This document shows, piece after piece, positions 1,335-64,000 of a stretch of DNA of 64,000 nt. The DNA comes from a virus. The stretch's first letter is position 1. Each line of letters begins with the position of its first letter. Position numbers and translations under genes: made by a program. The notes below the pieces were generated by a model. It was not told the DNA's origin, ran no database searches, and saw only the letters and a list, made by a program, of their open reading frames with translations. The DNA lies in IMG/VR virus record IMGVR_UViG_3300005573_000004, positions 85,962 through 149,961 of that record. One strand, given 5' to 3'.

Positions 1335-1369
1335 ATATTTTGTATACTTTATAAAAAAGGAGTAAAACT

Positions 1370-1990: not shown

Positions 1991-2003
1991 ATAGGAGGAA
2001 AAT

Positions 2004-3455: not shown

Positions 3456-3459
3456 TTCT

Positions 3460-5241: not shown

Positions 5242-5261
5242 TCAACCGGAGGTTCTAATAT

Positions 5262-8024
5262 ATGTATATAAATAGTTCTACTCCTCAAGGACAGTCAAAT
5301 TTTTACAAAAAGATAGCTTCACAGAAACTTGCAAGAGGCAATCAAGGATTTACACGTAAAGCTTCAGTATTTGGATATGGTACAGGATCGGATTCTGTTG
5401 GTATGCCTCCAGTAGCACTTAGTGGTGGACAGGTTAGCCGTATGGCTATGAAGCCGTTCAGTCCATTATACCAAGAATCCAATTTAATGTTGCCAAAAGA
5501 TAGAAAGACAATGAACGCCTACAACAGGCATTATTATGAAACAGATTATTGGGTTGGGAATATTATTGATTTACATACTTATTATCCACTTGGTGGATTT
5601 GATATTATTTCAAAAAATAAAGATCTAGAACGTCTAATGATTCGTGCAGCTGATCGTGTAGATTTATTAAACATAGTATTAGGGGTTGGGTTAGAATATT
5701 GGGTTTATGGGGAAGCATTTCCGTTCTTAGAATGGGATAAAAATACTATGATGTGGAGCAGAGCAACTATATTTAATCCTGATTTAATGGAAGTTCGAAG
5801 AACCATATTTATGGATAAACCAATTATTACTTTAATTCCTGATGCTGAATTAAAGAGAATTGTTACTTCTACACACCCAGCGGATGCAGTATTGCGTGAA
5901 CAAATTCCGAGAGGAGTTTTGGAATATGTTTTAAAAGGTGAGAATATTCCATTATCATCAAGAAATATATCTCATATTCTTAAAAAGACCGTTCCACACG
6001 ATTTACGTGGAACTTCTATTATTCAAAGAGTTTGGAAAGAACTTATGTTACGTGATGCATTCAGAGAAGTATTATTTGTTATTGCTCAAAACCATATTAC
6101 TCCATTAAAGATATTCAAGATTGGTGGAGTTAATAAAGAATATTATCCAAGTTCTGATGAATTAGCAATATGGCAAGGAATTATTGAAGAAGCACAGAAC
6201 GATCCGAATTTTAGTATTATAACACACGAAGGATTAGAAGTAGATTATAAGGGTGCAACTGGACAGATTCTAGATGTTCATTCATATTTAGAGCAAATAC
6301 AAAATAACGTATTGACAGGTTTATTTGCTTCTAAAGCTATGACATCTGGTGATGGTCCGTGTTATGATTGTCAAACGGAAGTATTAACTGAAAATGGATG
6401 GAAGAAATATGAGGAAGTTTTAGAAAATGAAAGGATAGCAGTTTTTGATCCTGAAACTCATAAAATAGACTATGAACTTCCAGAAGAGCGGCATTATTGG
6501 TTAAATGATGGTAAAAAAGATATGATCCATTTTGAAACTCAGCATATAGATGTTTGTGTAACTGCAGACCATAATATGCACGTTTTGCGTGACGGTAAAT
6601 GGATAAAGATTCCTGCACAAGAGGTACGTTTAGGAGATAAATTTTGTGGACATTTAGAATGGGAAAGTCCAATTGAACCAAAACCTATAGTAATTGGTGA
6701 TAAGATTATAGATCCAAAAATTTGGATGAAATTTTTGGGCTATTTTATTTCAGAAGGTTATATTAGTTATAATAAATCAGAACACGAGAACGGACCCAAT
6801 AGTTTTACTTATCAAATACGTATACCACAGAGTAAATTAAGAAATCCAGAAACATTTGCAGATATAGAGGAAACGCTAAAGGCTATGGAATTTACTTATT
6901 CTATCATAGAGAAATCTCCAAAAGGATCGGAAAGCTATGATTTTATTATTTATTCAAAAGAGTTAGTAGAATATTTAGAAGAATTATTTGATGTAGTTCA
7001 AATAAATTCGTATACTAAATATATTCCACAAGACTATTTAATGTGGCCGAAAGAATATTTAAGTTTACTTTTACAAACATTGATGTCTGGAGATAGACAT
7101 ATTCGTTATTCACATAAGAAGAGAGGGCATTATTATGCGTACTCTACTTGTTCTGAGAAATTGGCTGATTCTATACAAGAACTTATTTTAAAGGTAGGAT
7201 ATTTGCCAACTAAGAGATGGGATCCTTATAGTGGAACTTCTGGGTTATGGCGTGTATATTACTCAACGAATTCCCCAGATATTGTTACGCCAGGATTAGC
7301 TAGTGCAGAACATATAAGTAAACTAGATGGCTATAAAGATTATGTATGGTGTTTTAAAATGCCATCAGGTGCTTTTATAACGAGACGTAATGGTAAAATT
7401 GGTACACATTTCAATACATATGCAAACGCACAAGTAGCTTATGAAATTCTTCAGAAGCGTTATGTTTATTTTAGAAATGTTATTGAGAGATGGCTTAAGA
7501 ATAAATTTTTCCTTCCTATTTCTATTATGCATGGTTTCAAAAATAAAGAAGGTGGATATGATGTACCACAGATTAAATGGTCTCGTATGGATTTTAATAA
7601 AGATGATGCTTGGAGAAATAAAGTTATTGAACTCAATCAGTCAGAGAAAAAACTTATTTCTGATAGAACTGTTGTTACGGAACTCGGTTTTGATTATGAT
7701 GAGCAACAGGAACTTATTCAGACAGAACGTATTGCTCAACAAGCACAAAAAGAAAAAGCCAAAGCAATGGCTAAAGGAGAAGAAGGTGGAGCTGGTGGTT
7801 TAGGAGGTTTAGGTGGAGGTTTAGGTGGAGGTTTGGGAGGCGGACTTGGAGGTTTAGGTGGAGGTGGAGGTTTGGGTGATTTAGGTGGGGGAGGAGGTTT
7901 AGAAGGTCTAGGTGGAGGAGGAGAAGGCGGACCAGAACTTGGAGGTCTTGGTGGTGGCTTAGAAGGTTTAGGTGGTGGCGGTGAAGGTCCAGAATCAACA
8001 GCATTTGGTACACCTGGAGAATAG
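5262..8024 (+). CDS. Portal protein containing an intein, with Gly-rich C-terminal tail
   Basis: Follows terL. YWVYGEAF and ISHI...DLRGTSII portal-like motifs; spliced junction reads GDGP|TYANAQV. Confidence 0.85.
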   Translation: MYINSSTPQGQSNFYKKIASQKLARGNQGFTRKASVFGYGTGSDSVGMPPVALSGGQVSRMAMKPFSPLYQESNLMLPKDRKTMNAYNRHYYETDYWVGNIIDLHTYYPLGGFDIISKNKDLERLMIRAADRVDLLNIVLGVGLEYWVYGEAFPFLEWDKNTMMWSRATIFNPDLMEVRRTIFMDKPIITLIPDAELKRIVTSTHPADAVLREQIPRGVLEYVLKGENIPLSSRNISHILKKTVPHDLRGTSIIQRVWKELMLRDAFREVLFVIAQNHITPLKIFKIGGVNKEYYPSSDELAIWQGIIEEAQNDPNFSIITHEGLEVDYKGATGQILDVHSYLEQIQNNVLTGLFASKAMTSGDGPCYDCQTEVLTENGWKKYEEVLENERIAVFDPETHKIDYELPEERHYWLNDGKKDMIHFETQHIDVCVTADHNMHVLRDGKWIKIPAQEVRLGDKFCGHLEWESPIEPKPIVIGDKIIDPKIWMKFLGYFISEGYISYNKSEHENGPNSFTYQIRIPQSKLRNPETFADIEETLKAMEFTYSIIEKSPKGSESYDFIIYSKELVEYLEELFDVVQINSYTKYIPQDYLMWPKEYLSLLLQTLMSGDRHIRYSHKKRGHYYAYSTCSEKLADSIQELILKVGYLPTKRWDPYSGTSGLWRVYYSTNSPDIVTPGLASAEHISKLDGYKDYVWCFKMPSGAFITRRNGKIGTHFNTYANAQVAYEILQKRYVYFRNVIERWLKNKFFLPISIMHGFKNKEGGYDVPQIKWSRMDFNKDDAWRNKVIELNQSEKKLISDRTVVTELGFDYDEQQELIQTERIAQQAQKEKAKAMAKGEEGGAGGLGGLGGGLGGGLGGGLGGLGGGGGLGDLGGGGGLEGLGGGGEGGPELGGLGGGLEGLGGGGEGPESTAFGTPGE
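6360..7415 (+). mobile_element. Intein (352 aa) with LAGLIDADG-type homing endonuclease domain
   Basis: Starts CYDCQTEVLTENGWK (block A), VTADHNM (block B), FLGYFISEG and LQTLMSGD (endonuclease motifs), ends FITRRNGKIGTHFN with +1 Thr. Confidence 0.92.
7783..7990 (+). repeat. GGL/GGGG low-complexity coding repeat in portal C-terminus
   Basis: Repeated ggaggtttaggt-type units encoding GGLGGLGGG... Confidence 0.9.
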
Positions 8025-47856: not shown

Positions 47857-48435
47857 CTATGCCAGATGATCAAGTTTAAGCATTCTACTCATAAGTGTCT
47901 GCCAAGCCACGTGAAGTGGTATAACACTCGGTTCTATGGACTCTGCTCTATAGGATCCTGAATTTCCGTCGAAGTCTTCACGATTTTTAATTCTCTCTAA
48001 AAAGGAACTTAGTGGCTCTGCTTGGCTAATCTGTTTTGCTTGTTCAGCAAGCCAATCTTTTTTAGTCTTTTTATATCTCTTTATTTCTCTAGTGTGTAGA
48101 GTTTTACGTAATATATCTATAATTTTATTTCTACAACTTTTCCAAAACAATGCATTGAAATTATTATGTATAGTAGGATCATACCTACATATTAGAGAGA
48201 CTAATACAATATCTAATTCTTGTATTAAATCATCCACAGTTATCCATGTTTCTGATCTTTTACTACTGCGTGTTAATTGAGCAGCTAAATTCCTTACCAT
48301 ACTTCTTAATGAGCTACTATAGTAAGTCCGCATTCTCTTGTATTCTCTCTGATTTATTATAGTCATTGTATCTGTATTTATTTGGAATTCAAAGAGCTGG
48401 TCTTTTACTGCTATTTGTTTTTTAATTATTGACAT
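47857..48435 (-). CDS. Sigma-70 region-2-containing phage sigma-like factor
   Basis: DDLIQE...L...RYDP....F.......RNKIIDILRK matches sigma region 2. ATG 48435 follows AAGGAGG; an alternative GTG lies at 48489. Confidence 0.7.
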   Translation of the reverse strand: MSIIKKQIAVKDQLFEFQINTDTMTIINQREYKRMRTYYSSSLRSMVRNLAAQLTRSSKRSETWITVDDLIQELDIVLVSLICRYDPTIHNNFNALFWKSCRNKIIDILRKTLHTREIKRYKKTKKDWLAEQAKQISQAEPLSSFLERIKNREDFDGNSGSYRAESIEPSVIPLHVAWQTLMSRMLKLDHLA

Positions 48436-48454
48436 AATTTCCTCCTTCAGGTTT

Positions 48455-49642
48455 TTAGAATTTTGTTTTAGAACTAAAAAAGAACCCACTTAGTGAACTA
48501 CCTTGCCTAAAGACAGAGGCTTCAAGTGACGAAACAATAGGAGTTGGGTTGTCACTTAGGCTCGTTCCGAGCCTTAATATATTTAAAGCTGAATTAAAAT
48601 CTCTATCTAAGGAGCAGTTACAATGAGGACAATTATGAATACGAATATCAAGAGTTTTAGGAACTACTTTTCCACATTGGCTACAAATCTGAGATGTATC
48701 TTTGGCTGGAACTTTAACTATTGTTCTACCAGCTTCTGCCGCTTTATAGGACAAAATGTTAAAGAACTGAAACCAGGCTACATCTCTCATGCTCCTATTA
48801 AGATTTCTAAAACTTGTAAAAGCATTCATTTTTTCGTGACAAATAGTATCATAATTATCTACATAATATCTAGCAACTTTATGATGAAAATCAAGACGTT
48901 GATTAGCGACCTTCTCATGAACTTTACTCAAAAGCAATTTAGTTTGTTTGTATTTATTAGAACCTTTGACTTGTTTAGAAAGTTTCTGTTGAAGTTTTTT
49001 AATTTTCTCAAAAGATTTATTCAACCATCTTGGATTTTCAATCTTTTTTCCTTCACTATCTGTAAGAAAACTTTCACAACCTACATCTATTCCAATTGCT
49101 TTATTAACCTTTGGAAGAACTTTAGGAGTTATATTATCACAAACAAAACTAATATACCATTTTCCAGTACTAGTTCTGCGGATAGTAACTGTTTTGATTT
49201 TGGCCTCTTTAGGAATTTGTCTATGAAACCTAATTTTGAATATACCTATTTTAGGAATATTCAAAACAGAACCTTCCAAAGACCAACTTGCTTGTTTAAG
49301 AGTAAAGGAATCATATCTATTAGTTCCTTTAAACCTTGGAAATCCTGGATTTTCTCCTTTTTTGACTCTATTAAAAAAATTTTGATAAGCTCTATCAAGA
49401 CGTTCTATAACATCTTGGAGACTTTGAGAAGGAATTTGTTTAAATTCAGGATAATATTGTTTGAGTTCCGGAAGTTGTTTTATTTGATCAAATTTAGAAA
49501 TAGACTTCCTATGAAGCTTCCAAGCATTAATTCTTTGACTAAGACAAAGATTATATACTTGGCGACAAAGTTCCAAGACTTTATTAGCTTGGTCTTCTGT
49601 AGTCTTATTGATATAGGCTCTAAATTTGTATGTCTTTTTCAT
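48455..49642 (-). CDS. tnpB: TnpB RNA-guided endonuclease
   Basis: MKKTYKFR N-terminus, GFPRFK, RuvC D (GIDVG), E (HEKM) and D (DRDFNSA), CSQC/CPHC zinc finger. Confidence 0.95.
   Translation of the reverse strand: MKKTYKFRAYINKTTEDQANKVLELCRQVYNLCLSQRINAWKLHRKSISKFDQIKQLPELKQYYPEFKQIPSQSLQDVIERLDRAYQNFFNRVKKGENPGFPRFKGTNRYDSFTLKQASWSLEGSVLNIPKIGIFKIRFHRQIPKEAKIKTVTIRRTSTGKWYISFVCDNITPKVLPKVNKAIGIDVGCESFLTDSEGKKIENPRWLNKSFEKIKKLQQKLSKQVKGSNKYKQTKLLLSKVHEKVANQRLDFHHKVARYYVDNYDTICHEKMNAFTSFRNLNRSMRDVAWFQFFNILSYKAAEAGRTIVKVPAKDTSQICSQCGKVVPKTLDIRIHNCPHCNCSLDRDFNSALNILRLGTSLSDNPTPIVSSLEASVFRQGSSLSGFFFSSKTKF
48473..48640 (-). ncRNA. Predicted TnpB omegaRNA (reRNA); guide = flank TAAGTGGGTTCTTTTTTAGT
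   Basis: Inferred from established TnpB biology: scaffold overlaps the tnpB 3' end and right end. The 5' boundary is approximate. Confidence 0.55.
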
Positions 49643-53671: not shown

Positions 53672-54544
53672 TTAATCCATATCGTTTTCACTTCTAAATC
53701 CTAAGAATACCGGAAATCTTGGAGCTTCTTTTATCCCTGTTGGTTGATACTTATACTTGATGATCTTATTTAAAAACTGTTCTTTATTCTGCCAAATTAG
53801 ATTTCTAATGTTATCGCTTAATCCACTGCCAATTCCAAATTCTATATTAGTTTTTAAATCTCTCACGATTAAAGTTCCCAATGTTCCTGCTGGAACCATT
53901 CCAGATTTCGCTTGACTTCTTTTAGTATGTCCTAACGCATCTTTCTCTGCTTCATTTTCATTATGCATCTTTTCTTCAAAACCAATAATAATTGCTTCCG
54001 CATCTTCAAATCTTTTTAATTTTAAAAGATAACCTTCTTTAGTGGTTGATCTTCCTAATTTGTATGGTCCGTTTCCAGATCTAATCATAACTCCTTCGTA
54101 GCCTGAGGCTAAGCACTCTCTTTCATAGAGTAACAAATCCTCTACTTTATTTATTGTGACAGGTAAAACTTTAACTACAAAATCAGGTAATGATAATGCT
54201 TTTAGATCTTCCATTCTATCTTTATATGGTCGGTCTAACGAATCTTTAACATAATCAAATACATAATATTTAAACTCTGGATGACCTTCTTCACTCATTA
54301 CTTTGCTGGTAGTTTCCTGGAACGAACCGCTAGTCATAAGTTCACCATCCAACCCATCAGGAAGTTGACTAACAAGAGATCTAATATATTGGTTAGGTAT
54401 CTCTTTAAACTTCCTTGATAATACTTTTCCATCTAATTTAAGGCATCTAATTCCATCAAGTTTTGGAGTGCAATAAACTGGATATTGTAATTTGTTTACA
54501 TCCTCAACCTTTCCTGCTAACATCGGTTTACTGACATACTCCAT
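53672..54544 (-). CDS. lig: ATP-dependent DNA ligase (minimal, Chlorella-virus-like)
   Basis: KPMLA, TPKLDGIRC (adenylated Lys), LDGEL, YVFD, EGVMIR, LLKLK and PRFPVF motifs. Confidence 0.93.
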   Translation of the reverse strand: MEYVSKPMLAGKVEDVNKLQYPVYCTPKLDGIRCLKLDGKVLSRKFKEIPNQYIRSLVSQLPDGLDGELMTSGSFQETTSKVMSEEGHPEFKYYVFDYVKDSLDRPYKDRMEDLKALSLPDFVVKVLPVTINKVEDLLLYERECLASGYEGVMIRSGNGPYKLGRSTTKEGYLLKLKRFEDAEAIIIGFEEKMHNENEAEKDALGHTKRSQAKSGMVPAGTLGTLIVRDLKTNIEFGIGSGLSDNIRNLIWQNKEQFLNKIIKYKYQPTGIKEAPRFPVFLGFRSENDMD

Positions 54545-54796
54545 GGGCTAAAACACCGTGGGTTCTAAGGTCGGCACTCCTATTGCCGTTGCCTCTTTAG
54601 GGGTGTCAGTGCTCCCTTTGCACAAATCTCTATTATGTTTTATTTTATATGTTAATATCATTTACCTTTTTGCTCCTTATACTTTATTATACCATATATT
54701 AGATAACAAAGCAAGAAGAAAGTTGCGATTTATTTATTATGCCCAAAATTCATCCCACGCCTTAAAGGGACGGGGCTTTCTTTTTGGCAAAGCATT
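54531..54796 (-). mobile_element. 266-bp non-autonomous IS605-type element with internally deleted tnpB, inserted in codon 9 of the ligase
   Basis: TTAC|AATGC...AAAG-CCCCG hairpin (left end) and GAAC-CCACGG hairpin...TCAG (right end). Removal restores MSTMNTKITKPMLA from RBS+ATG 54822. Confidence 0.85.
54548..54661 (-). pseudogene. 37-aa tnpB remnant (N- and C-terminus fused)
   Basis: MILTYKIKHNRD-LCKGSTDTPKEAT...TLEPTVF, with a promoter TTGCTT-17-TATAAT at 54686-54714. Confidence 0.65.
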
Positions 54797-54912
54797 GTAA
54801 TTTTAGTATTCATTGTACTCATTCTCTTTTACCTCCTTCGTTTACTAATAAGTAAACTAATATAAACAACCACAAAAAAGTAATTAAAAGATAGAAAAAC
54901 ATGATACACCTC

Positions 54913-55374
54913 CTATTTAGCAGATAAAAGTTCCATAGCCGTAACTTCAAATATAACATCTTCTTTTTCTGCAAAATTAATTAAAAATTCTCCAACAGTC
55001 ATAAGCTTATAATCATTGGAAGTATTGCCTTTTTTATCCAGTTTTCTAACAGCAATTTTGTCATCGATTTTCCACGCAGAAATAAAGCTATAATGCGTTG
55101 GTGTAGCTAATGTAAGCACTACAGGAAGATCAGAATCGTACTTGTCATCTAATGCCTTAAGTCTATTTATGAAACCTTTAATTATATAATTTATACTTGA
55201 AATAGAAACCTTTCCAGCCGGAAAAACAATTACGATCTCTATATTGAATGGGTTTCTTTTAGAAATTTTAAATTTATCTATTCTACCTAAACCTTCTCCC
55301 TGATTCTTAAGCCAATTTATTATCTTGATAAACTCTTCTCTTTCCTCTTTTTTTATTTTTGTCATTTTTAGCAC
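54913..55374 (-). CDS. Hypothetical protein
   Basis: AAGGAG RBS; open frame. Confidence 0.55.
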   Translation of the reverse strand: MLKMTKIKKEEREEFIKIINWLKNQGEGLGRIDKFKISKRNPFNIEIVIVFPAGKVSISSINYIIKGFINRLKALDDKYDSDLPVVLTLATPTHYSFISAWKIDDKIAVRKLDKKGNTSNDYKLMTVGEFLINFAEKEDVIFEVTAMELLSAK

Positions 55375-55389
55375 GCTCCTTTCAATTGA

Positions 55390-55914
55390 TTATTCAGCTC
55401 CACATCGTGTTAAAAATTCTATCACATCATTATACTTTCTTCTAATAGCTACTGATAGAGCAGTTTCTCCTTCTTCATTTCTATCATTAATATGAGCTTT
55501 TGCATTAACTAACAATTTTACTATTTCAATATATCCATCACTACTAGCATATATTAACGCAGTATTTCCCCATTTATCTTTGATATTAACTTTTGCATTA
55601 GCATCAAGTAGCAACTTAACTATATTTGTATGCCCAAACTTACTAGCTTTAATCAAAGCAGTTTCACCTATGCCATCAATAAGATCAATATCTGCTCCAG
55701 CATCTATTAACAATTTTGCTATAGTATAGTTTCCCACTATGCAAGCTTCCATTAAAGCAGTTACTCCATATATATTTCTAGCATTAAGATTATTAGGTAA
55801 TGAATCAGCAGTTGTATAGCTCATACCTAATTTTTTTAAAGCCATTAGTCTAGAAAATTTGCTAGCAGTTTCATCATTTAATAGTTTCAATAAATCTTGC
55901 TGATATGGAGTCAT
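55390..55914 (-). CDS. Ankyrin-repeat protein 1 (no signal peptide)
   Basis: GxTAL..A...G...IVKLL..A.A..N repeats. Confidence 0.92.
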   Translation of the reverse strand: MTPYQQDLLKLLNDETASKFSRLMALKKLGMSYTTADSLPNNLNARNIYGVTALMEACIVGNYTIAKLLIDAGADIDLIDGIGETALIKASKFGHTNIVKLLLDANAKVNIKDKWGNTALIYASSDGYIEIVKLLVNAKAHINDRNEEGETALSVAIRRKYNDVIEFLTRCGAE

Positions 55915-55935
55915 ATAGATACCTCCTTTCTAACT

Positions 55936-56667
55936 TTATTCTTTGGCTCCTGCTTTTTTTAAGAGTTCTACTACTGCAGTTCTACCATTTTTACTAGCTT
56001 CCATAAGAGCAGTATCTCTATTGTTATTTCTAGCATTTACATTAGCTCCCGCTTTAATTAGCAGCTCTACTATTTCAGTTTTACCACGTTTACTAGCCAT
56101 CATTAAAGCAGTACCCCCATATATATCTTTAACATTAACATCCGCTCCTGCTTTAATTAATATCTTTACTGTATCAGTATGACCACGATCACTAGCTTCT
56201 AGAAGAGCAGTATCTCCATAGTTGTTTTTAGCATTTATATCAGCTCCAGCTTTCAATAATAATTTTACCACTTCAGTTCTGCCTTTTGCACTAGCACGCA
56301 TTAAAGCAGTTCTTCCATTCATATCTTTAGCATTAACGTCTGCTCCTGCATCTATTAACTTTTTAACTACTTCATATTCCCCAGCATCACTAACAGGCAT
56401 CAAAGCAGTCCATCCATCTATAGTTTGGGCATTAACATCTGCTCCCGCATCTATAAAAACTTTTGCTACATCAGTTTGTAGCCAACCACAAGCATATAGT
56501 AAAGCAGTTTCTCCTCTATAGTCTTGATAATTAATGTCACTTAATATATTAAATCCAGATTTATATTCTGGATATACTTTTGTTATTGCAAATAATCTAG
56601 TATAGATACCAGCAGTTTCGTCTTTTATTAACTTTCTCAATTCATCCATTTGCATATTATAAAACAC
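55936..56667 (-). CDS. Ankyrin-repeat protein 2 (no signal peptide)
   Basis: About 6 ANK repeats; N-terminus related to protein 1 (L.KL..DETA...RL.A). Confidence 0.95.
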   Translation of the reverse strand: MFYNMQMDELRKLIKDETAGIYTRLFAITKVYPEYKSGFNILSDINYQDYRGETALLYACGWLQTDVAKVFIDAGADVNAQTIDGWTALMPVSDAGEYEVVKKLIDAGADVNAKDMNGRTALMRASAKGRTEVVKLLLKAGADINAKNNYGDTALLEASDRGHTDTVKILIKAGADVNVKDIYGGTALMMASKRGKTEIVELLIKAGANVNARNNNRDTALMEASKNGRTAVVELLKKAGAKE

Positions 56668-56678
56668 CTCCTTTCTAT

Positions 56679-57203
56679 TTATTCTTTGGCTCCTGCTTTC
56701 TTTAATAATTCTACTATTTCAGTATTCCCAACTCCACTAGCTTCTATTAAAGCAGTATTTCCATATTTATCTTTAGCATTAACCTTTGCTCCTACTTCTA
56801 TTAATAACTTCACTATTTCAGTATTTCCATGAAGACTAGCCCACATTAAAGCTGTCCTTCCATCTTTATCTTTAGCATTAATATTCGCTCCAGCTTCTAT
56901 TAATAACTTCACTATTTCAGTATGTCCATGAAGACTAGCCCTCATTAAAGCAGTCCATCCCGCTTCATCTTTAACATCTATATCAGCTCCTGCTTTAATT
57001 AATAACTCTACTATTTCAGTATTTCCGTGAAGACTGGCCAGCATTAAAGCAGTATCTCCATATTCACTTTCCTTAGCATTTACATCAGCTCCTGCTTTAA
57101 TTAATATTCTAACTGTTTTCACATCGTCCAATACACTAGCCTTAAATAATTCATTACTTTCCTGTCTAACATCTTTCTTAAATGACTTAGCAGTTTTACT
57201 CAT
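56679..57203 (-). CDS. Ankyrin-repeat protein 3
   Basis: ANK repeats; MSKT...LFKASVL N-cap. Confidence 0.95.
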   Translation of the reverse strand: MSKTAKSFKKDVRQESNELFKASVLDDVKTVRILIKAGADVNAKESEYGDTALMLASLHGNTEIVELLIKAGADIDVKDEAGWTALMRASLHGHTEIVKLLIEAGANINAKDKDGRTALMWASLHGNTEIVKLLIEVGAKVNAKDKYGNTALIEASGVGNTEIVELLKKAGAKE

Positions 57204-57240
57204 AGTTTATTACCTCCTTTTTTATTTTACAAAATTTAAT

Positions 57241-58152
57241 TTATTCTTTGGCTCCTGCTTTCTTTAATAATTTTGCTATTTCAGTATACCCTTTTTCTTT
57301 AGCAAGCATTAAAGCAGTATCATTTACATCCGCTCCAGCATCTACTAACAACTTCACTATTTTAGTTCTACCACGCATACTAGCCCATACTAAAGCAGTA
57401 TTTTCGTATTTATTTTTAGCTTCAATATCCGCTCCTGCTTTTAATAATAATTTTACTACTTTAGTATATCCTTTGTCAATTGCCAGCATCAAAGCAGTTT
57501 CATCTAAAGTATATTCCTTAGCATTAATATCCGCTCCAGCATCTATTAAAAGTTTAACTATCTTATGGTAACCATATTTACTTGCTTTCATTAAAGCAGT
57601 ATCTCCCCATTTATTTTTAGTATTTACTTTAGCTCCTGCTTCCAACAACATTTTAACTACTTCGGTTCTACCTTTTTCGCTAGCCCACACTAATGCTGTT
57701 TCCCCATATAATTGTTCTCTTACGTTTACATCAGCTCCTGCTTCCAACAACACTTTTACTACTTCGGTTCTACCTCTTTCACTTGCCCACAGTAATGCTG
57801 TTTCACTAAAACTATTTTTAGCATTAACATCTGCTCCAGCTTTAATTAATAATTTAACAAGATCAACATATCCCCACAAACTAGCATACATCAATGCTGT
57901 TCCACCAACTTTATCTTTAGCATTAACATTAGCCCCCGCTTTAATTAAAGTTTTAGCAACATTAATACTTCCATTTTTACTAGCCTCTATTAAAGCAGTG
58001 ACACTATTAACATCCTTAGTATTAACATCAATCTTATCCTGCTTAATTAATATCCTAACTGTTTCCACATCGTTCAATACACTAGCCTTAAATAAAGCTT
58101 CCTGTTTAACTTTCTCGTCTAACATCTTTAATAACCCAGTAGTTTTACTCAT
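57241..58152 (-). CDS. Ankyrin-repeat protein 4
   Basis: About 8 ANK repeats; MSKT...LFKASVL N-cap. Confidence 0.95.
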   Translation of the reverse strand: MSKTTGLLKMLDEKVKQEALFKASVLNDVETVRILIKQDKIDVNTKDVNSVTALIEASKNGSINVAKTLIKAGANVNAKDKVGGTALMYASLWGYVDLVKLLIKAGADVNAKNSFSETALLWASERGRTEVVKVLLEAGADVNVREQLYGETALVWASEKGRTEVVKMLLEAGAKVNTKNKWGDTALMKASKYGYHKIVKLLIDAGADINAKEYTLDETALMLAIDKGYTKVVKLLLKAGADIEAKNKYENTALVWASMRGRTKIVKLLVDAGADVNDTALMLAKEKGYTEIAKLLKKAGAKE

Positions 58153-58182
58153 AGTTCTTTACCTCCTTTTTATTTTAGTGAG

Positions 58183-58211
58183 ATTTTACAAAATTTAATT
58201 TATTTTGTCAA
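58183..58211 (-). promoter_or_regulatory. Sigma70 promoter in repeated ankyrin cassette junction
   Basis: TTGACA-17 nt-TAAAAT. Confidence 0.8.
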
Positions 58212-58231
58212 GAGTTATTAGTATTATTCTA

Positions 58232-58780
58232 TTATTTTTTGGCTCCAGCATTTTTCAATAATTCTGCTATTCCAGTATCTCTAGAAAAGAAATTAGCAAG
58301 TACTAAAGCAGTATCTCCATTATTATTTTTAGCATTAATATCTGCTCCTGCATCTAATAATAATTTTACTATTTTAGGATATCCGTTTGCACTAGCTATC
58401 ATTAAAGAAGTATATCCATATCTATCTTTAGCTTCAATATTAGCTCCTGCTTTAATTAACATCTCCACTACTTCAGTATTCCCATTAATACTAGCCAGCA
58501 TCAAAGCAGTTTCTCCTAAAGTATATTCCTTAGCATTTACATCTGCCCCTGCTTTAATTAACAACTCTACTATTCTAGTATGTCCAAATACACTAGCCAG
58601 CATCAAAGCATTCCAACCTGCTTCATCTTTAGCATTTACATCAACCCTTGCTTTAATTAGCAATTCTACTATTTTAGTATTTCCATATCTACTAGCCAAT
58701 ATTAAAGCAGTTCTTCCGTATACTATACTCAATACAAGTAATACTACCACACCTAACAAAACTAATAGCTTCTCAATCAT
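58232..58780 (-). CDS. Ankyrin-repeat protein 5 with N-terminal signal/TM
   Basis: MIEKLLVLLGVVVLLVLSIVYG followed by ANK repeats. Confidence 0.95.
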   Translation of the reverse strand: MIEKLLVLLGVVVLLVLSIVYGRTALILASRYGNTKIVELLIKARVDVNAKDEAGWNALMLASVFGHTRIVELLIKAGADVNAKEYTLGETALMLASINGNTEVVEMLIKAGANIEAKDRYGYTSLMIASANGYPKIVKLLLDAGADINAKNNNGDTALVLANFFSRDTGIAELLKNAGAKK

Positions 58781-58809
58781 AGTTTATTACCTCCTTTTTT
58801 ATTTTATAT

Positions 58810-59685
58810 TTATTCTTTGGCTCCTGCTTCTTTTAACAATTCTACTGTTTCAATATTACTAGTCACCATTAAAGCAGTATATCCATTATTATTTTTAGCA
58901 TTAACATCTGCTCCTGCTTCTATTAACAGTTTTACTGTATCAGGATGTCCATTTCTACTAGCAAGCATTAAAGCCGTATCTCCATTTTTATTTTTAGTAT
59001 TAACATCTGCTCCAGCTTCTAATAATAACTTTACTATTTCAGTATAGCCTTTGTCACTAGCAAGTATTAACGCTGTTTCTCCAAGTTCATTTTTAGCATC
59101 AATATCGGCTCCTGATTCTATTAGTAACTTTACCGTTAACAATTTTACTGTTTCAACAATATAATCTCCTTCTTTACTTTCTTTACTTTCTTCATTATCT
59201 TTAATAGCAAGCATCAACGCCGTATTACCACTCCATTTATCTTTAGCATCAATATCGGCTCCTGATTCTAATAATAACTTTACTACTTCAGCATATCCAT
59301 AATAACTAGCCCACATCAACGCCGTATTACCCAGTTTATCTTCAGCATCAACCTCAGCTCCTGCTTCCAATAATAACTTTACTATTTCAGTATTACCGTT
59401 TTCACTAGCCCACATTAACGCCGTTTCTCCTTCCTTATTTTTAGTATTTACTTTAGCTCCTGCTTCCAATAATACTTTAACTACTTCGGTTCTACCATTA
59501 TAACTAGCCCACATCAATGCAGTATTTTTATCTTCATTTTCAGCATTTACATCTACTCCTGATTCTAATAATAACTTTACTACTCCAGTATGTCCATATT
59601 TACTAGCCAGTATCAACGCCACGCCACGTTTATTTTTAGTATTAGCCCCTGCTTTTTTTAATACTTCTAATAGCTTCTTAATCAT
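58810..59685 (-). CDS. Ankyrin-repeat protein 6 (signal core absent)
   Basis: MIKKLL joined directly to EVLKKAGA; ANK repeats. Confidence 0.95.
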   Translation of the reverse strand: MIKKLLEVLKKAGANTKNKRGVALILASKYGHTGVVKLLLESGVDVNAENEDKNTALMWASYNGRTEVVKVLLEAGAKVNTKNKEGETALMWASENGNTEIVKLLLEAGAEVDAEDKLGNTALMWASYYGYAEVVKLLLESGADIDAKDKWSGNTALMLAIKDNEESKESKEGDYIVETVKLLTVKLLIESGADIDAKNELGETALILASDKGYTEIVKLLLEAGADVNTKNKNGDTALMLASRNGHPDTVKLLIEAGADVNAKNNNGYTALMVTSNIETVELLKEAGAKE

Positions 59686-59714
59686 AGTTTATCACCTCCT
59701 TTTTTATTTTATAT

Positions 59715-60473
59715 TTATTCTTTGGCTCCTGCATCTTTCAAGAGGTCTACTATTTTAGTATAGCATCTTTCATCACCACCTTTTTCTTTAGCATAGTTTA
59801 AAGCTGTCTTTCCATCTTTATCTTTAGCATTAACCTCAGCTCCAGCCATCAATAACATCTCAACCATTTCAGTAAACCCATTTGCACTAGCATACATTAA
59901 AGCAGTTTTTCCGTCCTTATCTTTATCATTAACATTAGCCCCATCTACCAATAAAATCTCCACTGTTTCAGTCTTTCCATACACGCTTGCCCATATTAAA
60001 GCAGTATCTCCATAGTTATCTTTAGCATTAATATCTGCTCCCGCTGTAATTAATGATTCTACTACTTCATTATGTCCATTTTTACTCGCCCATATCAAAG
60101 CAGTATATCCATACTTATTTTGGGCATTAACATCTGCTCCAGCTTCAATTAATATCTTTACTATCCCACTATATCCATCTCTACTTGCCAACATTAAAGC
60201 CGTATTTCCATATAGCTTGTCCTTAGTATTAACATCTGCTCCAGTCATTAACAATTCTGCTACTTTTGTTGTATCATTTTTTTCAATCGCTCTTATAAGG
60301 AGCAATCCCTTTGATGCTACTTTTGTTTTTGTAGCAGTTTGAACAGTTTGGACAGTGGGATCACCCAATCCATCCAATCCATCCAATCCATCCAATCCAT
60401 CTGACTCATAACCTAATACCATACTTTGCAACCCAATTACCACTCCTAATAAAATTAATAACTTCTTAATCAT
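59715..60473 (-). CDS. Ankyrin-repeat protein 7 with signal peptide
   Basis: MIKKLLILLGVVIGLQSMVLG, (DGL)4 linker, ANK repeats. Confidence 0.95.
   Translation of the reverse strand: MIKKLLILLGVVIGLQSMVLGYESDGLDGLDGLDGLGDPTVQTVQTATKTKVASKGLLLIRAIEKNDTTKVAELLMTGADVNTKDKLYGNTALMLASRDGYSGIVKILIEAGADVNAQNKYGYTALIWASKNGHNEVVESLITAGADINAKDNYGDTALIWASVYGKTETVEILLVDGANVNDKDKDGKTALMYASANGFTEMVEMLLMAGAEVNAKDKDGKTALNYAKEKGGDERCYTKIVDLLKDAGAKE
60365..60401 (-). repeat. 9-bp tandem repeat (GATGGATTG)x4
   Basis: ccaatccat units on the + strand. Confidence 0.85.
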
Positions 60474-60504
60474 GGTTTATTACCTCCTTTTTTATTTTAG
60501 TAAG

Positions 60505-60533
60505 ATTTTACAAAATTTAATTTATTTTGTCAA
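60505..60533 (-). promoter_or_regulatory. Second identical copy of the cassette promoter
   Basis: TTGACA-17 nt-TAAAAT, same sequence as 58183-58211. Confidence 0.8.
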
Positions 60534-61359
60534 GAGTTATTTTAGTATTATTTTTAGCTCCAGCTTTCTTTAAGAGTTCTACTATTTTGGTATACTTATT
60601 GTTACTAGCCAATGTAAGAGCAGTATCTTTATTGTTATTTCTAGCATTTACATCAGCCCCCGCTTTAATTAGCAACTCTACTATTTCAATAATTCCATCT
60701 CTACTTGCCAACATTAAAGCCGTATTCCCGTCTTTATCTCTAGCATTAATATCAGCCATTGCTTCTTTTAAGAGTTCTGCTATCTCAGTATAGCCTTTTT
60801 CTTGAGCAATCATTAAAGCAGTCCACCCAGCTTTATCTTTAGCATTAACCTTAGCCCCAGCTTTAATTAACAACTCTACTATTTCAATATAGCCTTTTTC
60901 TTTGGCCATCGTAAAAGCAGTATCACCCCATTTATCCTTAGCATTAACATCCGCTCCCGCATTTATTAATAACTTTACTATTTCAGGATGATTATTTAAA
61001 ATTGCCAACATTAAAGCCGTACCTCCATTTTTATTTTCAGCATTAATATCCGCTCCTGCTTCTAATAACAACTCTACTATTTCAGTATTTCCAAATACAC
61101 TAGCCCATATTAGAGCAGTATTTCCATATAGTTTTTCCCTAGCATTAATATTTGCTCCGTTCTCTAATTCTTTTTGTATTTCATCCATATAACCCTCTTT
61201 AGCTGCTCTTATAAGACGCAAATCCTTTAATGCCATTTTCGTTTCCTTAGTAGTTTTGGCAGTCGGAGTCTTTGGAGAAGCACTTGATTTATAACCTAAT
61301 ACCATACTTTGCAACCCTATTACTACTACACCTAACCAAACTAATAACTTCTTAATCAT
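60517..61359 (-). CDS. Ankyrin-repeat protein 8 with signal peptide
   Basis: MIKKLLVWLGVVVIGLQSMVLG followed by ANK repeats. Confidence 0.95.
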   Translation of the reverse strand: MIKKLLVWLGVVVIGLQSMVLGYKSSASPKTPTAKTTKETKMALKDLRLIRAAKEGYMDEIQKELENGANINAREKLYGNTALIWASVFGNTEIVELLLEAGADINAENKNGGTALMLAILNNHPEIVKLLINAGADVNAKDKWGDTAFTMAKEKGYIEIVELLIKAGAKVNAKDKAGWTALMIAQEKGYTEIAELLKEAMADINARDKDGNTALMLASRDGIIEIVELLIKAGADVNARNNNKDTALTLASNNKYTKIVELLKKAGAKNNTKITLDKIN

Positions 61360-61464
61360 AGTTCCTGACCTCCTTCTTTAATAGTTTAATTTTTTTGAAA
61401 TACTTTTTTCTATTTAACAGATTTTTAAAATCGGTTTGTATAGTATCATATAGCACCTCCTTTT

Positions 61465-62514
61465 TTATTTTAGTAAGATACGTTTACGAACCTCTTTAGC
61501 TCCTGCATCTTTCAATGATTCTGCTATTTCAGTATACCCTCTTCCGTTAGCTAGCCTCAAAGCAGTATATCCATTTTTATTTTTAGCATTAATATCCGCT
61601 CCAGCATCTATTAACAACTCCACTATTTCAGTATTTCCAGCTTCACTAGCCTCTATTAAAGCAGTATCTCCATCTGTATTTTTAGCATTAATATCAGCTC
61701 CTGCCTCTATTAATAGTTTAACTATCTTATAGTAACCATATCTACTAGCATACATTAAAGCAGTATCTCCATCTTTATCTTTAGCATTAACATCAGCTCC
61801 TGCCTCTATTAATAGTTTAACTACTTCAGTATGTCTGTTTACACTAGCATACATTAAAGCAGTATCTCCATCTTTATCTTTAGCATTAACATCAGCTCCT
61901 GCCTCTATTAATAATTTTACTATTTCAGTATAGCTGTGCTTACTAGCATACATTAAAGCAGTATTTCCACTTTCATCTTTAGCATTAACCTTAGCCCCCA
62001 CTTTTATTAATAATTCTACTGTATCAATATGACCGTGATCACTAGCTTCTAGAAGAGCAGTATCTTTAGTGTTAATATCAGCTCCTGCTTTTAATAATAA
62101 CTCTACTATTTCAGTTTTACCATTTCTACTAGCCCATATTAAAGCAGTATCTCCCCATTTATCTGTAGCATTAATATCAGCTCCTGCTTCTATTAATAAT
62201 TTTACTACTTTAGGATGCCCATTAATACTAGCCATCATTAAAGCAGTATATCCATCTATATTGTCCTTAGCATTTACATTAGCTCTTGCTTCTATTAACA
62301 TCTTTACTATATCAGTATGTCCATTGTCACTAGCCCATATTAAAGCAGTATATCCATACATATCTTTAGTATTAACATTAGCTCCTATATTAATTAACGT
62401 CTTCACTACTTTAGTTCTACCGTATTTACTAGCAAATCTAATAGCAGGTCCTCCATAAATTATATACCACCCCATTACTACTACTCCTAACCAAACTAAT
62501 AACTTCTTAATCAT
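61465..62514 (-). CDS. Ankyrin-repeat protein 9 with signal/TM
   Basis: MIKKLLVWLGVVVMGWYIIYG followed by about 10 ANK repeats. Confidence 0.95.
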   Translation of the reverse strand: MIKKLLVWLGVVVMGWYIIYGGPAIRFASKYGRTKVVKTLINIGANVNTKDMYGYTALIWASDNGHTDIVKMLIEARANVNAKDNIDGYTALMMASINGHPKVVKLLIEAGADINATDKWGDTALIWASRNGKTEIVELLLKAGADINTKDTALLEASDHGHIDTVELLIKVGAKVNAKDESGNTALMYASKHSYTEIVKLLIEAGADVNAKDKDGDTALMYASVNRHTEVVKLLIEAGADVNAKDKDGDTALMYASRYGYYKIVKLLIEAGADINAKNTDGDTALIEASEAGNTEIVELLIDAGADINAKNKNGYTALRLANGRGYTEIAESLKDAGAKEVRKRILLK

Positions 62515-62814
62515 AGTTCTTTACCTCCTTCTTTAATAGTTTAATTTTAAAACCATTTTTCCAAAAATCTTTCCCTACCAAATTTCTTCCAGTTCCATAA
62601 CTAAACACCATCCTAACCTTTATTATACTACCCATACTAATCGTAGTATAATAAAACACCTACCATCATCCTATCTAAACTAACCTAACCAAACCGTTCT
62701 ATTCTACTACACTCTACTACTTCTTAATACTTACTAATCTAAAACTGCTTTATTTTATTACATTTTCCAATAGAACCTCCTTTCTATAGTATCTTTTATC
62801 ACTCCCCGGTTCCC

Positions 62815-62880
62815 CTTATTCCCCCTATTCTATTGCTTATTCCCCATATTCTATTGCTTATTCCCCCTATTCTATTGCTT
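62815..62880. repeat. 3 x 21-bp direct tandem repeat (CTTATTCCCC[C/A]TATTCTATTG)
   Basis: Units at 62815, 62836 and 62857. Confidence 0.9.
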
Positions 62881-62957
62881 CTGGTATAGCCCCCAAAAAT
62901 TCTACCTTCATCCACCCCGCCCCCGCTTCTACCGAACCTAATTCCTTAATTCCAGGG

Positions 62958-63052
62958 CTACTTAACTACCTAACTACTTAACTACCAAAACTACCAAAAC
63001 TACCTAACTACCTAACTACCAGGGCTACCAGGGGCTACTAAAACCTACTTAA
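62958..63052. repeat. Degenerate 8-9-bp CTAC(C/T)(T/A)AA tandem repeat
   Basis: ctacttaa ctacctaa ctacttaa ctaccaaaa ... about 11 units. Confidence 0.85.
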
Positions 63053-63209
63053 TTCCCCCCTAGTTACCCCTCCAGATACCCCCCTAGTTGCTACTAAGGT
63101 AGAACGGAGAGCAAGGAAGCAGGCAAAGAACTTTTCTTAATGGGAAATAGTTGAAGGCTTCCTTGCTCCTGCAAACTATTTATAGGATTTTTAGAACCCT
63201 CTACTTTTA

Positions 63210-63836
63210 TTATTTGGCTCCAGCTTCTTTCAAGAGTTCTACTATTTTAGTATATCCGTTTTTACTAGCCAGCGCCAAAGCAGTATATCCATCATTATTT
63301 TTAGTATTTACATCAGCTCCTGCTTCTAATAATAGCTTTACTATTTCAGTATATCCGTATTTACTAGCCCCCACCAAAGCAGTATTTCCATATCTATTCT
63401 TAATATTTACATTAGCTCCTGCTTCTTTCAAGAGTTCTACTATTTTAGGATATCCGCTTGCACTAGCTATCATTAAAGCAGTATTTCCATATCTATTCTT
63501 AATATTTACATTAGCTCCTGCTTCTAATAATAGCTTTACTATTTCAGTATAGCCGTAAAGACTAGCTATCATTAAAGCAGTAGTTCCATATAACTTTTCT
63601 TGAGCATTAATATTAGCTCCGGCCATTAACCACATTTTTACTCCTAATATATCATTCTTTTCAGCTGCTTCTATAAGGAACAATTCCTTATTTTTAATGT
63701 TATGAAGTTGTGCAATATGTTTTACCGCCAGTACCATGTTCGTTTCTGGAAGCGGATTCTCTCCCCCATAAAAACCTAATACTATACTTTGCAATCCAAT
63801 TACTACTCCTAACAAAACTAATAGTTTTTTAAACAT
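63210..63836 (-). CDS. Ankyrin-repeat protein 10 with signal peptide
   Basis: MFKKLLVLLGVVIGLQSIVLG followed by ANK repeats, including an exact internal duplication at 99-nt spacing. Confidence 0.95.
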   Translation of the reverse strand: MFKKLLVLLGVVIGLQSIVLGFYGGENPLPETNMVLAVKHIAQLHNIKNKELFLIEAAEKNDILGVKMWLMAGANINAQEKLYGTTALMIASLYGYTEIVKLLLEAGANVNIKNRYGNTALMIASASGYPKIVELLKEAGANVNIKNRYGNTALVGASKYGYTEIVKLLLEAGADVNTKNNDGYTALALASKNGYTKIVELLKEAGAK

Positions 63837-64000
63837 AATTTGTTACCTCCTTTTTAAAATATAGGGGTGGGTAGTTTTATATTACCTCCCCTGATTTACT
63901 CAAAACTAACGAGAGGCGTTAAAAGGAACCCTCCATTTTCAAGTCGGCCTTTTCTTTTGAAGCCTATGAGGGCTTTTCTTGGCACGTTTGGTAGGTTTGG

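Follow-up and report, generated by a model that had tools for sequence, protein, structure and literature searches.

Ankyrin genes of the window

The window, the whole stretch of DNA analysed here, is 64,000 nt long and covers positions 85,962 to 149,961 of the virus record IMGVR_UViG_3300005573_000004. The earlier note had placed ten co-oriented ankyrin-repeat (ANK) genes at 55390-63836, and ten minus-strand open reading frames lie at exactly those coordinates. All ten have strong Pfam Ank matches (E-values 1e-29 to 1e-95; PF00023 scores of 99-306 bits, cut-off 21.1). The genes and other elements of the array are as follows.

55390..55914 (-): ANK gene, 174 aa, with the modelled lineage-specific N-cap module (KL..DETAS) and 4 repeats; ends CGAE
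55936..56667 (-): ANK gene, 243 aa (called as 239 aa in related contigs), with the modelled lineage-specific N-cap module, 6 repeats and an AGAKE-type C-cap
56679..57203 (-): ANK gene, 174 aa, with a short basic tail and canonical N-cap (LFKASVLDDVKTVRILIKAGADVNA), 3 internal repeats and a C-cap
57241..58152 (-): ANK gene, 303 aa, canonical N-cap class, ~9 repeats
58183..58211 (-): sigma-70-like promoter TTGACA-17-TAAAAT, by consensus match only
58232..58780 (-): ANK gene, 182 aa, 5 repeats, with a hydrophobic N-terminal helix (residues 2-21) joined straight to repeat 1
58810..59685 (-): ANK gene, 291 aa, with a truncated leader, MIKKLL, fused to EVLKKAGA, which resembles ANK helix 2
59715..60473 (-): ANK gene, 252 aa, with a signal-peptide-like leader (h-region, then LQSMVLG), a (DGL)x4/T-rich linker, an N-cap and repeats
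60505..60533 (-): second copy of the TTGACA-17-TAAAAT promoter-like cassette
60517..61359 (-): ANK gene, 280 aa, with a signal-peptide-like leader, a T/P/K linker, an N-cap, 7 repeats and a C-terminal extension
61314..61393 (-): leader block of 80 bp, -34 to +46 of the 280-aa gene
61465..62514 (-): ANK gene, 349 aa, with a hydrophobic leader joined straight to 10 repeats
62469..62548 (-): 80-bp leader block of the 349-aa gene, partner of the block at 61314..61393
62515..63209 (-): gene-free spacer of 695 bp with short tandem repeats (21 nt x3, 8-9 nt x7)
63210..63836 (-): ANK gene, 208 aa, with a signal-peptide-like leader, a linker, an N-cap and 4 further repeats (5 counting the N-cap)

The repeats recur with a 99-nt periodicity (67-85% match, TRF). 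Our own repeat HMM gives 67 matches in the ten genes, some of them partial, in place of the 55-60 repeats estimated earlier. The previous tally of termini is the same on recheck: nine proteins end in AGAK (E/K/N or an extension) and one in CGAE, and the N-termini comprise five intact hydrophobic leaders, one truncated (58810), two of type MSKT..LFKASVL and two of type KL..DETA. Irregular repeats occur in three genes: an in-frame hairpin deletion joins ADVN to DTAL in 57241..58152, an insertion with a duplicated VKLL interrupts one repeat of 58810..59685, and a 71-nt exact tandem duplicate lies among the repeats of 61465..62514. The 695-bp spacer is conserved in relatives.

Genome context and occurrence

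The contig covers the whole phage genome (149,840 bp). Its ends share an exact 121-bp overlap, the ANK array runs across the junction, and an independent 31-kb contig (L091) bridges it. The earlier note had assigned the array to a phage, which is borne out by the TerL and portal genes found in the contig and by the IMG/VR record, with direct terminal repeats and a completeness of 100 (CheckV's estimate). The window ends at the contig end, 164 bp upstream of the start codon of 63210..63836, the last ANK gene ahead of the junction. Eleven further ANK genes lie within 25 kb beyond it, which brings the whole genome to 21 (ten in the window). The genome-wide repeat total is 119 by our own repeat HMM, or 107 by Pfam Ank matches in a six-frame scan, all 107 on one strand. 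The family takes up 9.7% of the genome. The phage also encodes a GroEL-type chaperonin, and one ANK gene is adjoined by genes for a MoxR-like ATPase and a DUF2201 protein. A search for a tyrosine integrase found none. The phage is large, thermophilic and probably virulent.

Independent contigs with a 98.5-100% identical array were found in the Yellowstone springs SJ3 and Obsidian Pool and in several other metagenomes, and exact pieces of the phage are present in two 2017 hot-spring runs. An artefactual or chimeric origin, which the earlier note had named as one of the outcomes that would overturn its reading, is contradicted by such contigs. Together with non-adaptive repeat expansion it forms an alternative that we regard as extremely unlikely. 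Repeats are hard to assemble, and Logan contigs of two runs do break up across the array; however, long independent contigs from several metagenomes span the contig ends and agree in gene order, with 99.9% identity. None of the 21 ORFs is disrupted, and their framework is under purifying selection (see below). The GC content of the array (0.32-0.35) is within the range of the remaining window, and ANK genes are interleaved with phage-type genes.

Two relatives of the phage, with TerL identities of 65% and 49%, have no Ank match, and in the closer one other small genes occupy the ligase-GP88 interval. The family is therefore dispensable for such a phage. The array lies in a variable accessory region and the family is lineage-specific. 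Among GenBank phages the commonest ANK matches are WO phages.

Fold and N-terminal modules

AF2 models (pLDDT 95.3 and 92.6) have helix pairs every 33 residues. The best PDB structural matches are DARPins (Z 18.7, 40-49% identity), and 969 of the 997 PDB chains ranked highest by Foldseek align at Z >= 8, those listed being DARPins and other ankyrins. By sequence the strongest PDB matches, behind long natural ankyrins, are mostly DARPins and designed consensus ankyrins. The protein of 56679..57203 aligns with DARPins end to end (query residues 18-172 against DARPin residues 8-161). The description of these proteins as DARPin-like thus holds: the paralogs have 2-9 near-consensus repeats between an N-cap and a C-cap. 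Pfam searches of the window proteins returned only Ank-clan families, the few other matches all falling below cut-offs.

Three interchangeable N-terminal modules had been proposed. Of these, the export- or anchor-type leaders of five genes stand as such, but the other two types belong to the repeat fold. MSKT..LFKASVL is a canonical, ordinary N-cap. The KL..D.TAS module (~45 aa) is conserved in 13 paralogs with a mean column identity of 49% and occurs in only 11 representative clusters among 1.84 billion proteins. In the AF2 models it is a helix-turn-helix-loop packed on repeat 1. Its helix 2, and in some matches both helices, aligns with the beginning of DARPin and designed-ankyrin chains. 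In the structural search, model residues 17/21 onward align with DARPin residue 26 onward, which by DARPin numbering we take to be the N-cap. As modelled, KL..D.TAS is a lineage-specific N-terminal capping repeat and no separate handle.

The conservation of this module raises the alternative of an adaptor family comparable to poxvirus ANK/PRANC proteins, in which the 45-aa module of the 13 paralogs docks on one shared machine (a protease, chaperonin or secretion system, for example) and the repeats bring substrates to it. The module is conserved well beyond the repeats and confined to the phage clade, and the chaperonin, the MoxR-like ATPase and the DUF2201 protein would be candidate partners. 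However, the models place it on repeat 1, the structural search aligns it with the probable DARPin N-cap, and N-caps control ANK thermostability (PMC8683736), so its conservation is explained without a partner. The Pfam search of the window proteins found no PRANC, F-box or other docking domain, and the proteins end at the C-cap (AGAKE). Docking on a common machine is quite unlikely.

Hydrophobic leaders

In five genes an uncharged run of 18-21 residues follows M(I/F)(K/E)K; the remaining 16 of the 21 ANK genes have no hydrophobic leader. Three of the five have a leader, c-region (VLG), linker and ANK domain, and in two the leader is joined to the repeats. The leader is modelled as one long helix apart from the ANK stack; in the protein of 58232..58780, for example, this single helix is followed by 5 ANK helix pairs. 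By hydropathy and the -3/-1 rule, the only criteria applied, these segments are putative export or anchor helices.

Leaders of this kind recall the ankyphage proteins (ANKp) of sponge phages. The corresponding reading here is that the infected bacterium releases ANK proteins that damp phagocytosis or immunity in a eukaryotic host or predator. A phage ANK protein with an N-terminal signal peptide is the ANKp architecture (Jahn et al., 10.1101/608950), and three genes here have a leader, linker and ANK domain. The 16 leaderless genes speak against secretion as the general mode. A temperature of ~62 °C is at or above the usual upper limit for eukaryotes. The phage comes from Yellowstone hot springs, Obsidian Pool and SJ3, the latter chemosynthetic, at 61.9 °C and pH 5.4 (PMC6368606). 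Modulation of eukaryotes, which had been among the functions suggested earlier, is very unlikely in such a spring.

Repeat framework and variable positions

Repeat positions G4, T6, A7, L8, A11, V20, L23, A26, G27, A28 and N31 are conserved at 91-100%. The framework had been called almost invariant, which is accurate for these positions and overstated for K2, T17, E18, I19 and V30. Only at repeat positions 2, 3, 5, 10, 13, 14 and 16 is entropy above 2.6 bits, and in the core framework it is below 1 bit. This non-uniform profile agrees with the earlier observation that variability is concentrated at hairpin and helix-1 positions. There, on the ankyrin concave face, each paralog has its own residue set, rich in Tyr, Trp, Arg and Asp; Trp (5.9x), His (4.7x) and Tyr (3.8x) are over-represented at the variable sites.

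The repeat framework is kept by purifying selection (pN 0.175, pS 0.44). At the variable sites pN is 0.57 and pS 0.55, and a ratio of ~1 fits relaxed constraint equally well. Diversifying selection is not proven: variation limited to the surface is a general property of the ankyrin family. The framework is in itself ordinary, and bacteria have a great many near-consensus ANK proteins (1,726 matches at E <= 1e-20 among the candidates scored).

Duplication, recombination and strain variation

Nucleotide identity between repeat units averages 69% and reaches at most 88%. By this divergence the units are old, and no recent mosaic repeats were seen among them. Recent exchange is limited to leader, promoter and Shine-Dalgarno (SD) cassettes, one whole-gene indel and a few tandem unit duplications. 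For example, 58810..59685 and 59715..60473 share an exact 39-nt cassette (AGAKE-stop, spacer, SD), and the promoter-like site at 58183..58211 lies inside another 39-nt cassette with an exact copy upstream of the 252-aa gene. Such promoter/SD cassettes are reused between ANK genes, although promoter-like matches in total are not clearly above shuffles (52 vs 40.4, sd 6.5). The 349-aa gene is present here and in contig L092 and absent from L091 and L093. It was gained or lost through a clean crossover in the shared 80-bp leader (61314-61393 and 62469-62548 are identical at 76 of 80 positions). The first proposal, a recombination-diversified repertoire, is weakened: recombination works on genes and not on repeat bodies.

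The ten window genes are 99.9% identical across samples and thus give no sign of rapid diversification or of an arms race at the sampled scale of time and space. Outside the window, strains differ more in two paralogs (91-93% identity) than in the neighbouring genes (98-100%). In one of the two paralogs, 10 of 22 in-repeat changes fall at variable positions (p ~0.009). Targets of a diversity-generating retroelement were considered and rejected: the complete genome has no RVT_1 match to a reverse transcriptase, and the array is near-identical between samples. The family expanded through tandem duplication, both of repeats and of entire genes along with their promoter/SD/leader cassettes, and crossover in these cassettes still adds and removes genes.

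Proposed function

Fold and context suggest that the family consists of lineage-specific, heat-stable ankyrin-repeat binders. Each paralog would bind a different bacterial protein during infection and block or redirect it, a reading that we consider fairly probable. For the 16 leaderless genes, the candidate targets comprise housekeeping factors as well as host defence or toxin proteins; for the five leader genes they are envelope components (receptors, secreted enzymes, rival-phage entry routes). The proteins may serve in anti-defence or superinfection exclusion. The near-consensus sequence probably reflects thermostability, because a consensus ANK framework gives very high thermostability (PMC8683736) and the phage would live at ~60 °C or more. 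A bolder version, in which duplication has produced a natural DARPin-like library with cytoplasmic and Sec-exported sets that inhibit, stoichiometrically and on a broad front, defence, toxin and envelope proteins of bacteria, is possible but doubtful.

A special case of the binder explanation has a defined target class. Each ANK protein would neutralise one toxin, from an abortive-infection or toxin-antitoxin system or from an interbacterial effector that reaches the periplasm, and the infected cell would be kept alive. Ankyrin repeats are an established type of immunity protein (Imm-ank, which acts against Tox-AHH) and have been described in heterogeneous polyimmunity loci (PMC3482391). In a phage search, an ANK-like match fell over genes annotated as polymorphic toxin immunity protein and polymorphic toxin, and the array itself is tandem, with many diverged predicted binders, some predicted to be exported. 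However, 20 neighbouring proteins contain no toxin domain by Pfam (seven also by PHROGs), and the similarity seen so far is to the generic ANK framework only. This narrower version is rather unlikely.

Single phage ANK genes are already known, and eukaryotic giant viruses and Wolbachia have ANK multigene families. Our literature search turned up no report of a tailed phage that devotes ~10% of its genome to 21 ANK paralogs, nor of one living where a eukaryotic target is implausible. The abundance of near-consensus bacterial ANK proteins tempers this singularity. If the proteins do bind bacterial proteins, ankyrin repertoires would serve purely prokaryotic conflicts. The family would then offer 21 natural, probably very heat-stable binder-target pairs that could be mined for counter-defence mechanisms, and a natural case in which to test whether a consensus sequence means stability. 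Under the library version, the family would represent in a bacterial virus what the ankyrin host-range families are in poxviruses and giant viruses, and it would supply hyperstable natural binding scaffolds whose targets are known.

Comparison with known systems

DARPins and other consensus-designed ankyrin proteins (Binz et al. 2003 and Kohl et al. 2003, as cited in PMC8683736) have the same N-cap, n consensus internal repeats and C-cap as the phage proteins. The phage framework motif is TALMxAS and not TPLHLAA. The phage proteins are natural, have ~2-9 internal repeats and in some cases export leaders, and their binding is predicted. The library positions of the 2003 Binz design are reportedly 2, 3, 5, 13, 14 and 33. 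Five of these six (2, 3, 5, 13, 14) are among the seven most variable in the phage repeats, but position 33 is a conserved Lys, and positions 10 and 16 vary in addition.

Ankyphage ANKp are likewise ANK proteins of tailed phages, some with an N-terminal signal peptide and no other domain. Of three sponge phages from animal-associated communities, one had its ANK protein tested, and an effect on macrophages was seen (Jahn et al. 2019, 10.1101/608950). In contrast, the present family has 21 mostly cytoplasmic (predicted) paralogs, and its source metagenomes are hot springs, not a community with a eukaryotic host, which makes a eukaryotic target implausible.

Imm-ank proteins of polyimmunity loci (Zhang et al. 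2012, PMC3482391) are ANK-only stoichiometric inhibitors in tandem arrays of diverse immunity genes. The array described here is instead phage-borne and not beside a toxin locus, with no cognate toxin genes among the proteins scanned. Poxvirus ANK/PRANC, mimivirus and Wolbachia/phage WO families (PMC3563639, PMC9203015) also comprise many diverged ANK paralogs clustered in variable regions, with gain and loss between strains as here, and are thought to be host-interaction binders. The phage ANK proteins described here differ from these families in that they lack PRANC, F-box or other effector domains and have a bacterial host, a thermophilic habitat and repeats far closer to consensus.

Extent of the ankyrin array

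Ten minus-strand ORFs fill the final 8.4 kb of the window, exactly at the coordinates proposed in the earlier note for ten ankyrin (ANK) genes. Every one of them is a strong Pfam Ank match (99-306 bits, cut-off 21.1), and re-reading of the sequences showed that their C-termini and N-terminal classes had also been described correctly. An HMM built from the family's own sequences found 67 repeat matches, some of them partial, across the ten genes, and Tandem Repeats Finder detected a 99-nt period with 67-85% match along the array.

The window makes up the final 64 kb of one contig of 149,961 bp, whose two ends overlap exactly by 121 bp. The IMG/VR entry lists direct terminal repeats and gives completeness as 100 (a CheckV estimate according to the tool's note). 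The junction is spanned directly by L091, an independent 31-kb contig of a near-identical phage from a different metagenome. Past the junction there are eleven further ANK genes, so the genome contains 21 in total, all on a single strand and occupying 9.7% of its length, with 119 repeats by HMM or 107 Pfam Ank matches.

ANK genes of the phage genome
Window 55390-63836, minus strand: ten ANK genes
Genome 847-3620: four ANK genes, directly past the junction
Genome 4299-5314: two ANK genes, just beyond the GP88-like gene
Out to 25 kb past the junction: five scattered ANK genes

Within the array, window 62515-63209 is a 695-bp spacer devoid of genes. Its minus strand is rich in G, a 21-nt unit is repeated in tandem 3.1 times and units of 8-9 nt about 7 times, and the spacer is 99.7% conserved in related contigs. 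Rfam gave no match across window 54000-64000, the spacer included.

Occurrence and habitat

Contigs that are 98.5-100% identical over stretches of 5-18 kb are present in at least six further metagenome samples, TerL with 98% protein identity in two further IMG/VR records, and exact pieces in two 2017 hot-spring sequencing runs. Because near-identical contigs carrying the same array come from independent metagenomes, and L091 spans the junction, an assembly artefact or a host chimera is ruled out, leaving this explanation a vanishingly small probability.

Three of the matching datasets could be traced through publications. The Yellowstone spring SJ3, which is chemosynthetic, at 61.9 °C and pH 5.4, is the source of IMG 3300029625 (PMC6368606), and Obsidian Pool that of IMG 3300017461 (PMC6421429); IMG 3300009503 bears a credit to J. 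Elkins. The earlier note had included modulation of eukaryotes among the possible roles. Since the habitat is a hot spring, with source springs that include SJ3, a eukaryotic target and with it an ankyphage-type action are very unlikely. The sequencing runs listed as containing phage sequence include no RNA runs. The two hot-spring DNA runs yielded fragmented contigs only, not readable for depth or copy number; the lower depth in hot-spring runs of a contig specific to the 349-aa gene (ANK genes are named here by protein length) is no more than a hint.

Variability within the repeat

Across 66 full-length units, with position 1 being the D of DxxGxTAL, entropy exceeds 2.6 bits solely at positions 2, 3, 5, 10, 13, 14, and 16. 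G4, T6, A7, L8, A11, V20, L23, A26, G27, A28, and N31 are 91-100% conserved. At the seven variable positions pN is 0.57 and pS 0.55, while the framework has a pN of 0.175 and a pS of 0.44. As had been predicted, then, variation is not uniform along the repeat, by per-site entropy and pN/pS alike. At the variable sites Trp is 5.9 times, His 4.7 times, and Tyr 3.8 times as frequent as in other proteins of the phage, a composition that would be expected for protein-binding surfaces. Five of the seven sites are among the positions reportedly randomised in libraries of DARPins (designed ankyrin binders). Such a pattern of surface-position variation is common among ankyrin families generally. The pN/pS ratio near 1 fits diversifying selection or relaxed constraint alike and cannot separate the two.

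Terminal modules

Three interchangeable N-terminal families had been proposed. The classes exist as described, but 'KL..D.TAS' and 'MSKT..LFKASVL' fold or align as N-terminal caps (N-caps). The 'KL..D.TAS' module (N-module) is found in 13 of the 21 genes. An exhaustive profile search of 1.84 billion proteins returned only 11 representative clusters, all of them ANK proteins which start with the N-module and are similar to paralogs of this phage; a profile search was required, as a word-indexed one detected only the protein itself. In the AlphaFold2 model (pLDDT 95) the N-module, made up of two helices (4-12 and 18-28) and a loop, packs against repeat 1. Structural searches aligned the model from residue 17 or 21 onward with DARPins from residue 26 onward, and some hits began at residue 1; in DARPin numbering the aligned region is the N-cap. 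The predicted fold points to a lineage-specific N-terminal capping repeat, not an independent handle. It thereby weakens the alternative that the ANK proteins are adaptors sharing a common handle, which is improbable. The 'MSKT..LFKASVL' class is a canonical N-cap.

Five genes encode hydrophobic leaders, with 18-21 uncharged residues directly after M(I/F)(K/E)K. In three of them LQS(M/I)VLG closes the run, and a low-complexity linker and an N-cap come next; judging by sequence, these leaders appear signal-peptide-like. In two the hydrophobic run abuts the first repeat. AlphaFold2 models it as a single long helix apart from the ANK stack. A truncated leader is present in one gene, where MIKKLL alone was kept and is fused to ANK sequence. 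The linker of the 252-aa ANK protein predicted to be exported, (DGL)x4, is encoded by a perfect 9-nt tandem repeat (x4.1, window 60365-60401) and is possibly a length-variable spacer.

The C-caps fall into two types, ..AGAK(E/K) and ..(Q/R/S)YGAK. The lineage N-cap is paired with the AGAK-type C-cap in two genes, and such combinations hint weakly at module exchange.

Duplication and recombination

The repeat units have a mean DNA identity of 69% (maximum 88%) and their invariant residues are encoded by mixed synonymous codons. This marks an old family whose framework has been preserved by selection; recent amplification or gene conversion does not account for it. Recent events are limited in number. 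In four genes, segments of 71, 51, 48, and 44 nt recur exactly at repeat-unit offsets, as tandem unit duplications, and the N-modules of two adjacent paralogs have a 67-nt exact match. Two 39-nt cassettes each occur twice, one promoter-like (TTGACA-17-TAAAAT) and one consisting of 'AGAKE-stop, spacer, SD'. The total of promoter-like sites is not clearly above that in shuffled sequences, and among them the duplicated 11/12 cassette alone deserves mention.

An 80-bp leader block is common to the 349-aa and 280-aa genes; its two copies match at 76 of 80 positions, and the sequences on either side are unrelated. L091 and L093, independent contigs of near-identical phages, lack the 349-aa gene and its spacer (1,155 bp), while a third such contig, L092, retains the gene; the loss junction is a clean crossover within the leader block. 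In the repeat bodies no recent mosaicism was found: inter-gene exact matches are 35-41 nt, about as long as conservation predicts, and fall within the most conserved framework stretch. Clustering of the genes by repeat similarity does not track N-terminal class but is dominated by the consensus-likeness of each gene. Of the recombination-diversified set envisaged earlier, shuffling of genes and of regulatory and leader cassettes was borne out, but recent mosaicism of repeat bodies was not; the indel and the cassette reuse place recombination at the former level.

Between samples, the ten window genes differ at 5 of 12,343 bases. Between the paralogs at genome 4299-4799 and 4796-5314 and their alleles from Obsidian Pool, identity is only 91-93%, against 98-100% for their neighbours (past-junction region L001 vs contig L006). 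In one of these two paralogs 10 of 22 in-repeat replacements fall at the seven variable positions (binomial p about 0.009), and both pS and pN are raised in the comparison. This looks like a divergent allele imported with a changed binding face. Genome 4299-5314 is a local hot spot of allelic replacement between Yellowstone samples.

Gene content and host

The large terminase and portal genes are on the plus strand, and their region has no DNA match among GenBank phages. The minus-strand block near the ANK genes encodes DNA ligase, an FtsK-like ATPase, a sigma-70-like protein, and TnpB. Past the junction the block contains a GroEL-type chaperonin, an SbcC-like protein, a glycosyltransferase, a GP88-like protein, and a MoxR-like ATPase with a DUF2201 protein.

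Selected genes and repeats
Window 47857-48489: protein resembling sigma-70 region 2
Window 48455-49642, minus strand: IS605-type TnpB (OrfB_IS605 + Cas12f-like TNB domain)
L002 17839-19482 (genome 37839-39482): bacterial GroEL-type chaperonin
Genome 16733 and 18139: 702-bp exact direct repeat (region genome 16.5-21.7 kb; L001 16562-19281, L002 1-1700)
Genome 19989 and 20912: 326-bp exact direct repeat

The genome has only one tRNA, and no tyrosine integrase or reverse transcriptase was found in it. A TnpB search of genome contigs gave as best match a short contig of an Actinomycetota MAG (54% identity), and the chaperonin is of bacterial GroEL type. No relatives of a 153-aa neighbour protein were found in IMG/VR. 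Many small early genes have a recurring motif of ~35 nt (TCCCCTGCCTATGGGGGAA..ATACATAGGC) immediately ahead of their SD.

Relatives and origin of the family

ANK matches at E <= 1e-10 occur in 21 of 50,697 GenBank phage records, all below 60% identity and most of them Wolbachia WO. An IMG/VR search with an ANK protein detected at least five loci. TerL relatives range from 79% to 42% identity, and two long ones in IMG/VR, with TerL identities of 65% (107 kb, 67% complete) and 49% (173 kb, complete), gave no Ank match. In the former, the ligase-GP88 interval consists of 10.6 kb of unrelated small genes, while in the present phage it contains 14 ANK genes. The ANK genes thus occupy a plastic, accessory part of the genome, and the family is restricted to a narrow lineage. 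The syntenic region of the 65% relative includes an adjacent pair of 138-aa paralogs (L181, G001:C1:59000-73000, at 6323-6739 and 6744-7160). These comparisons suggest that the locus hosts different expanded families in different phages.

A more distant relative's contig (L094, ENA ERZ6863929) has two adjacent ANK genes at 2401-3790, the first with the same N-cap module. The pair adjoins a gene for a 345-aa protein, equal in length to one encoded in the present phage. Outside homologues do not exceed 59% identity; they come from many phyla and are bacterial ANK proteins of the generic near-consensus kind. The framework itself is thus nothing unusual, and no particular donor emerges.

Proposed role and known systems

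With moderate confidence, the genes are best read as a duplicated repertoire of heat-stable binders. During infection each paralog would have a bacterial protein of its own to block or redirect; sixteen would act in the cytoplasm and five would be exported or membrane-anchored. An immunity or antidote array is an unlikely alternative to this binder repertoire. Literature searches found nothing relevant tying ankyrin repeats to phage anti-defence or hot-spring phages. The thermostability of consensus ankyrins is well documented, and caps are important for it (PMC8683736). Given a habitat at 60 °C or above, the need for thermostability may be the simplest explanation of the near-consensus framework.

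ANK genes have been described in phages before (Jahn et al. 2019), as have ANK multigene families in viruses. What sets this family apart is its copy number and its thermophilic, eukaryote-free setting, along with its dedicated N-cap variant and predicted exported subset.
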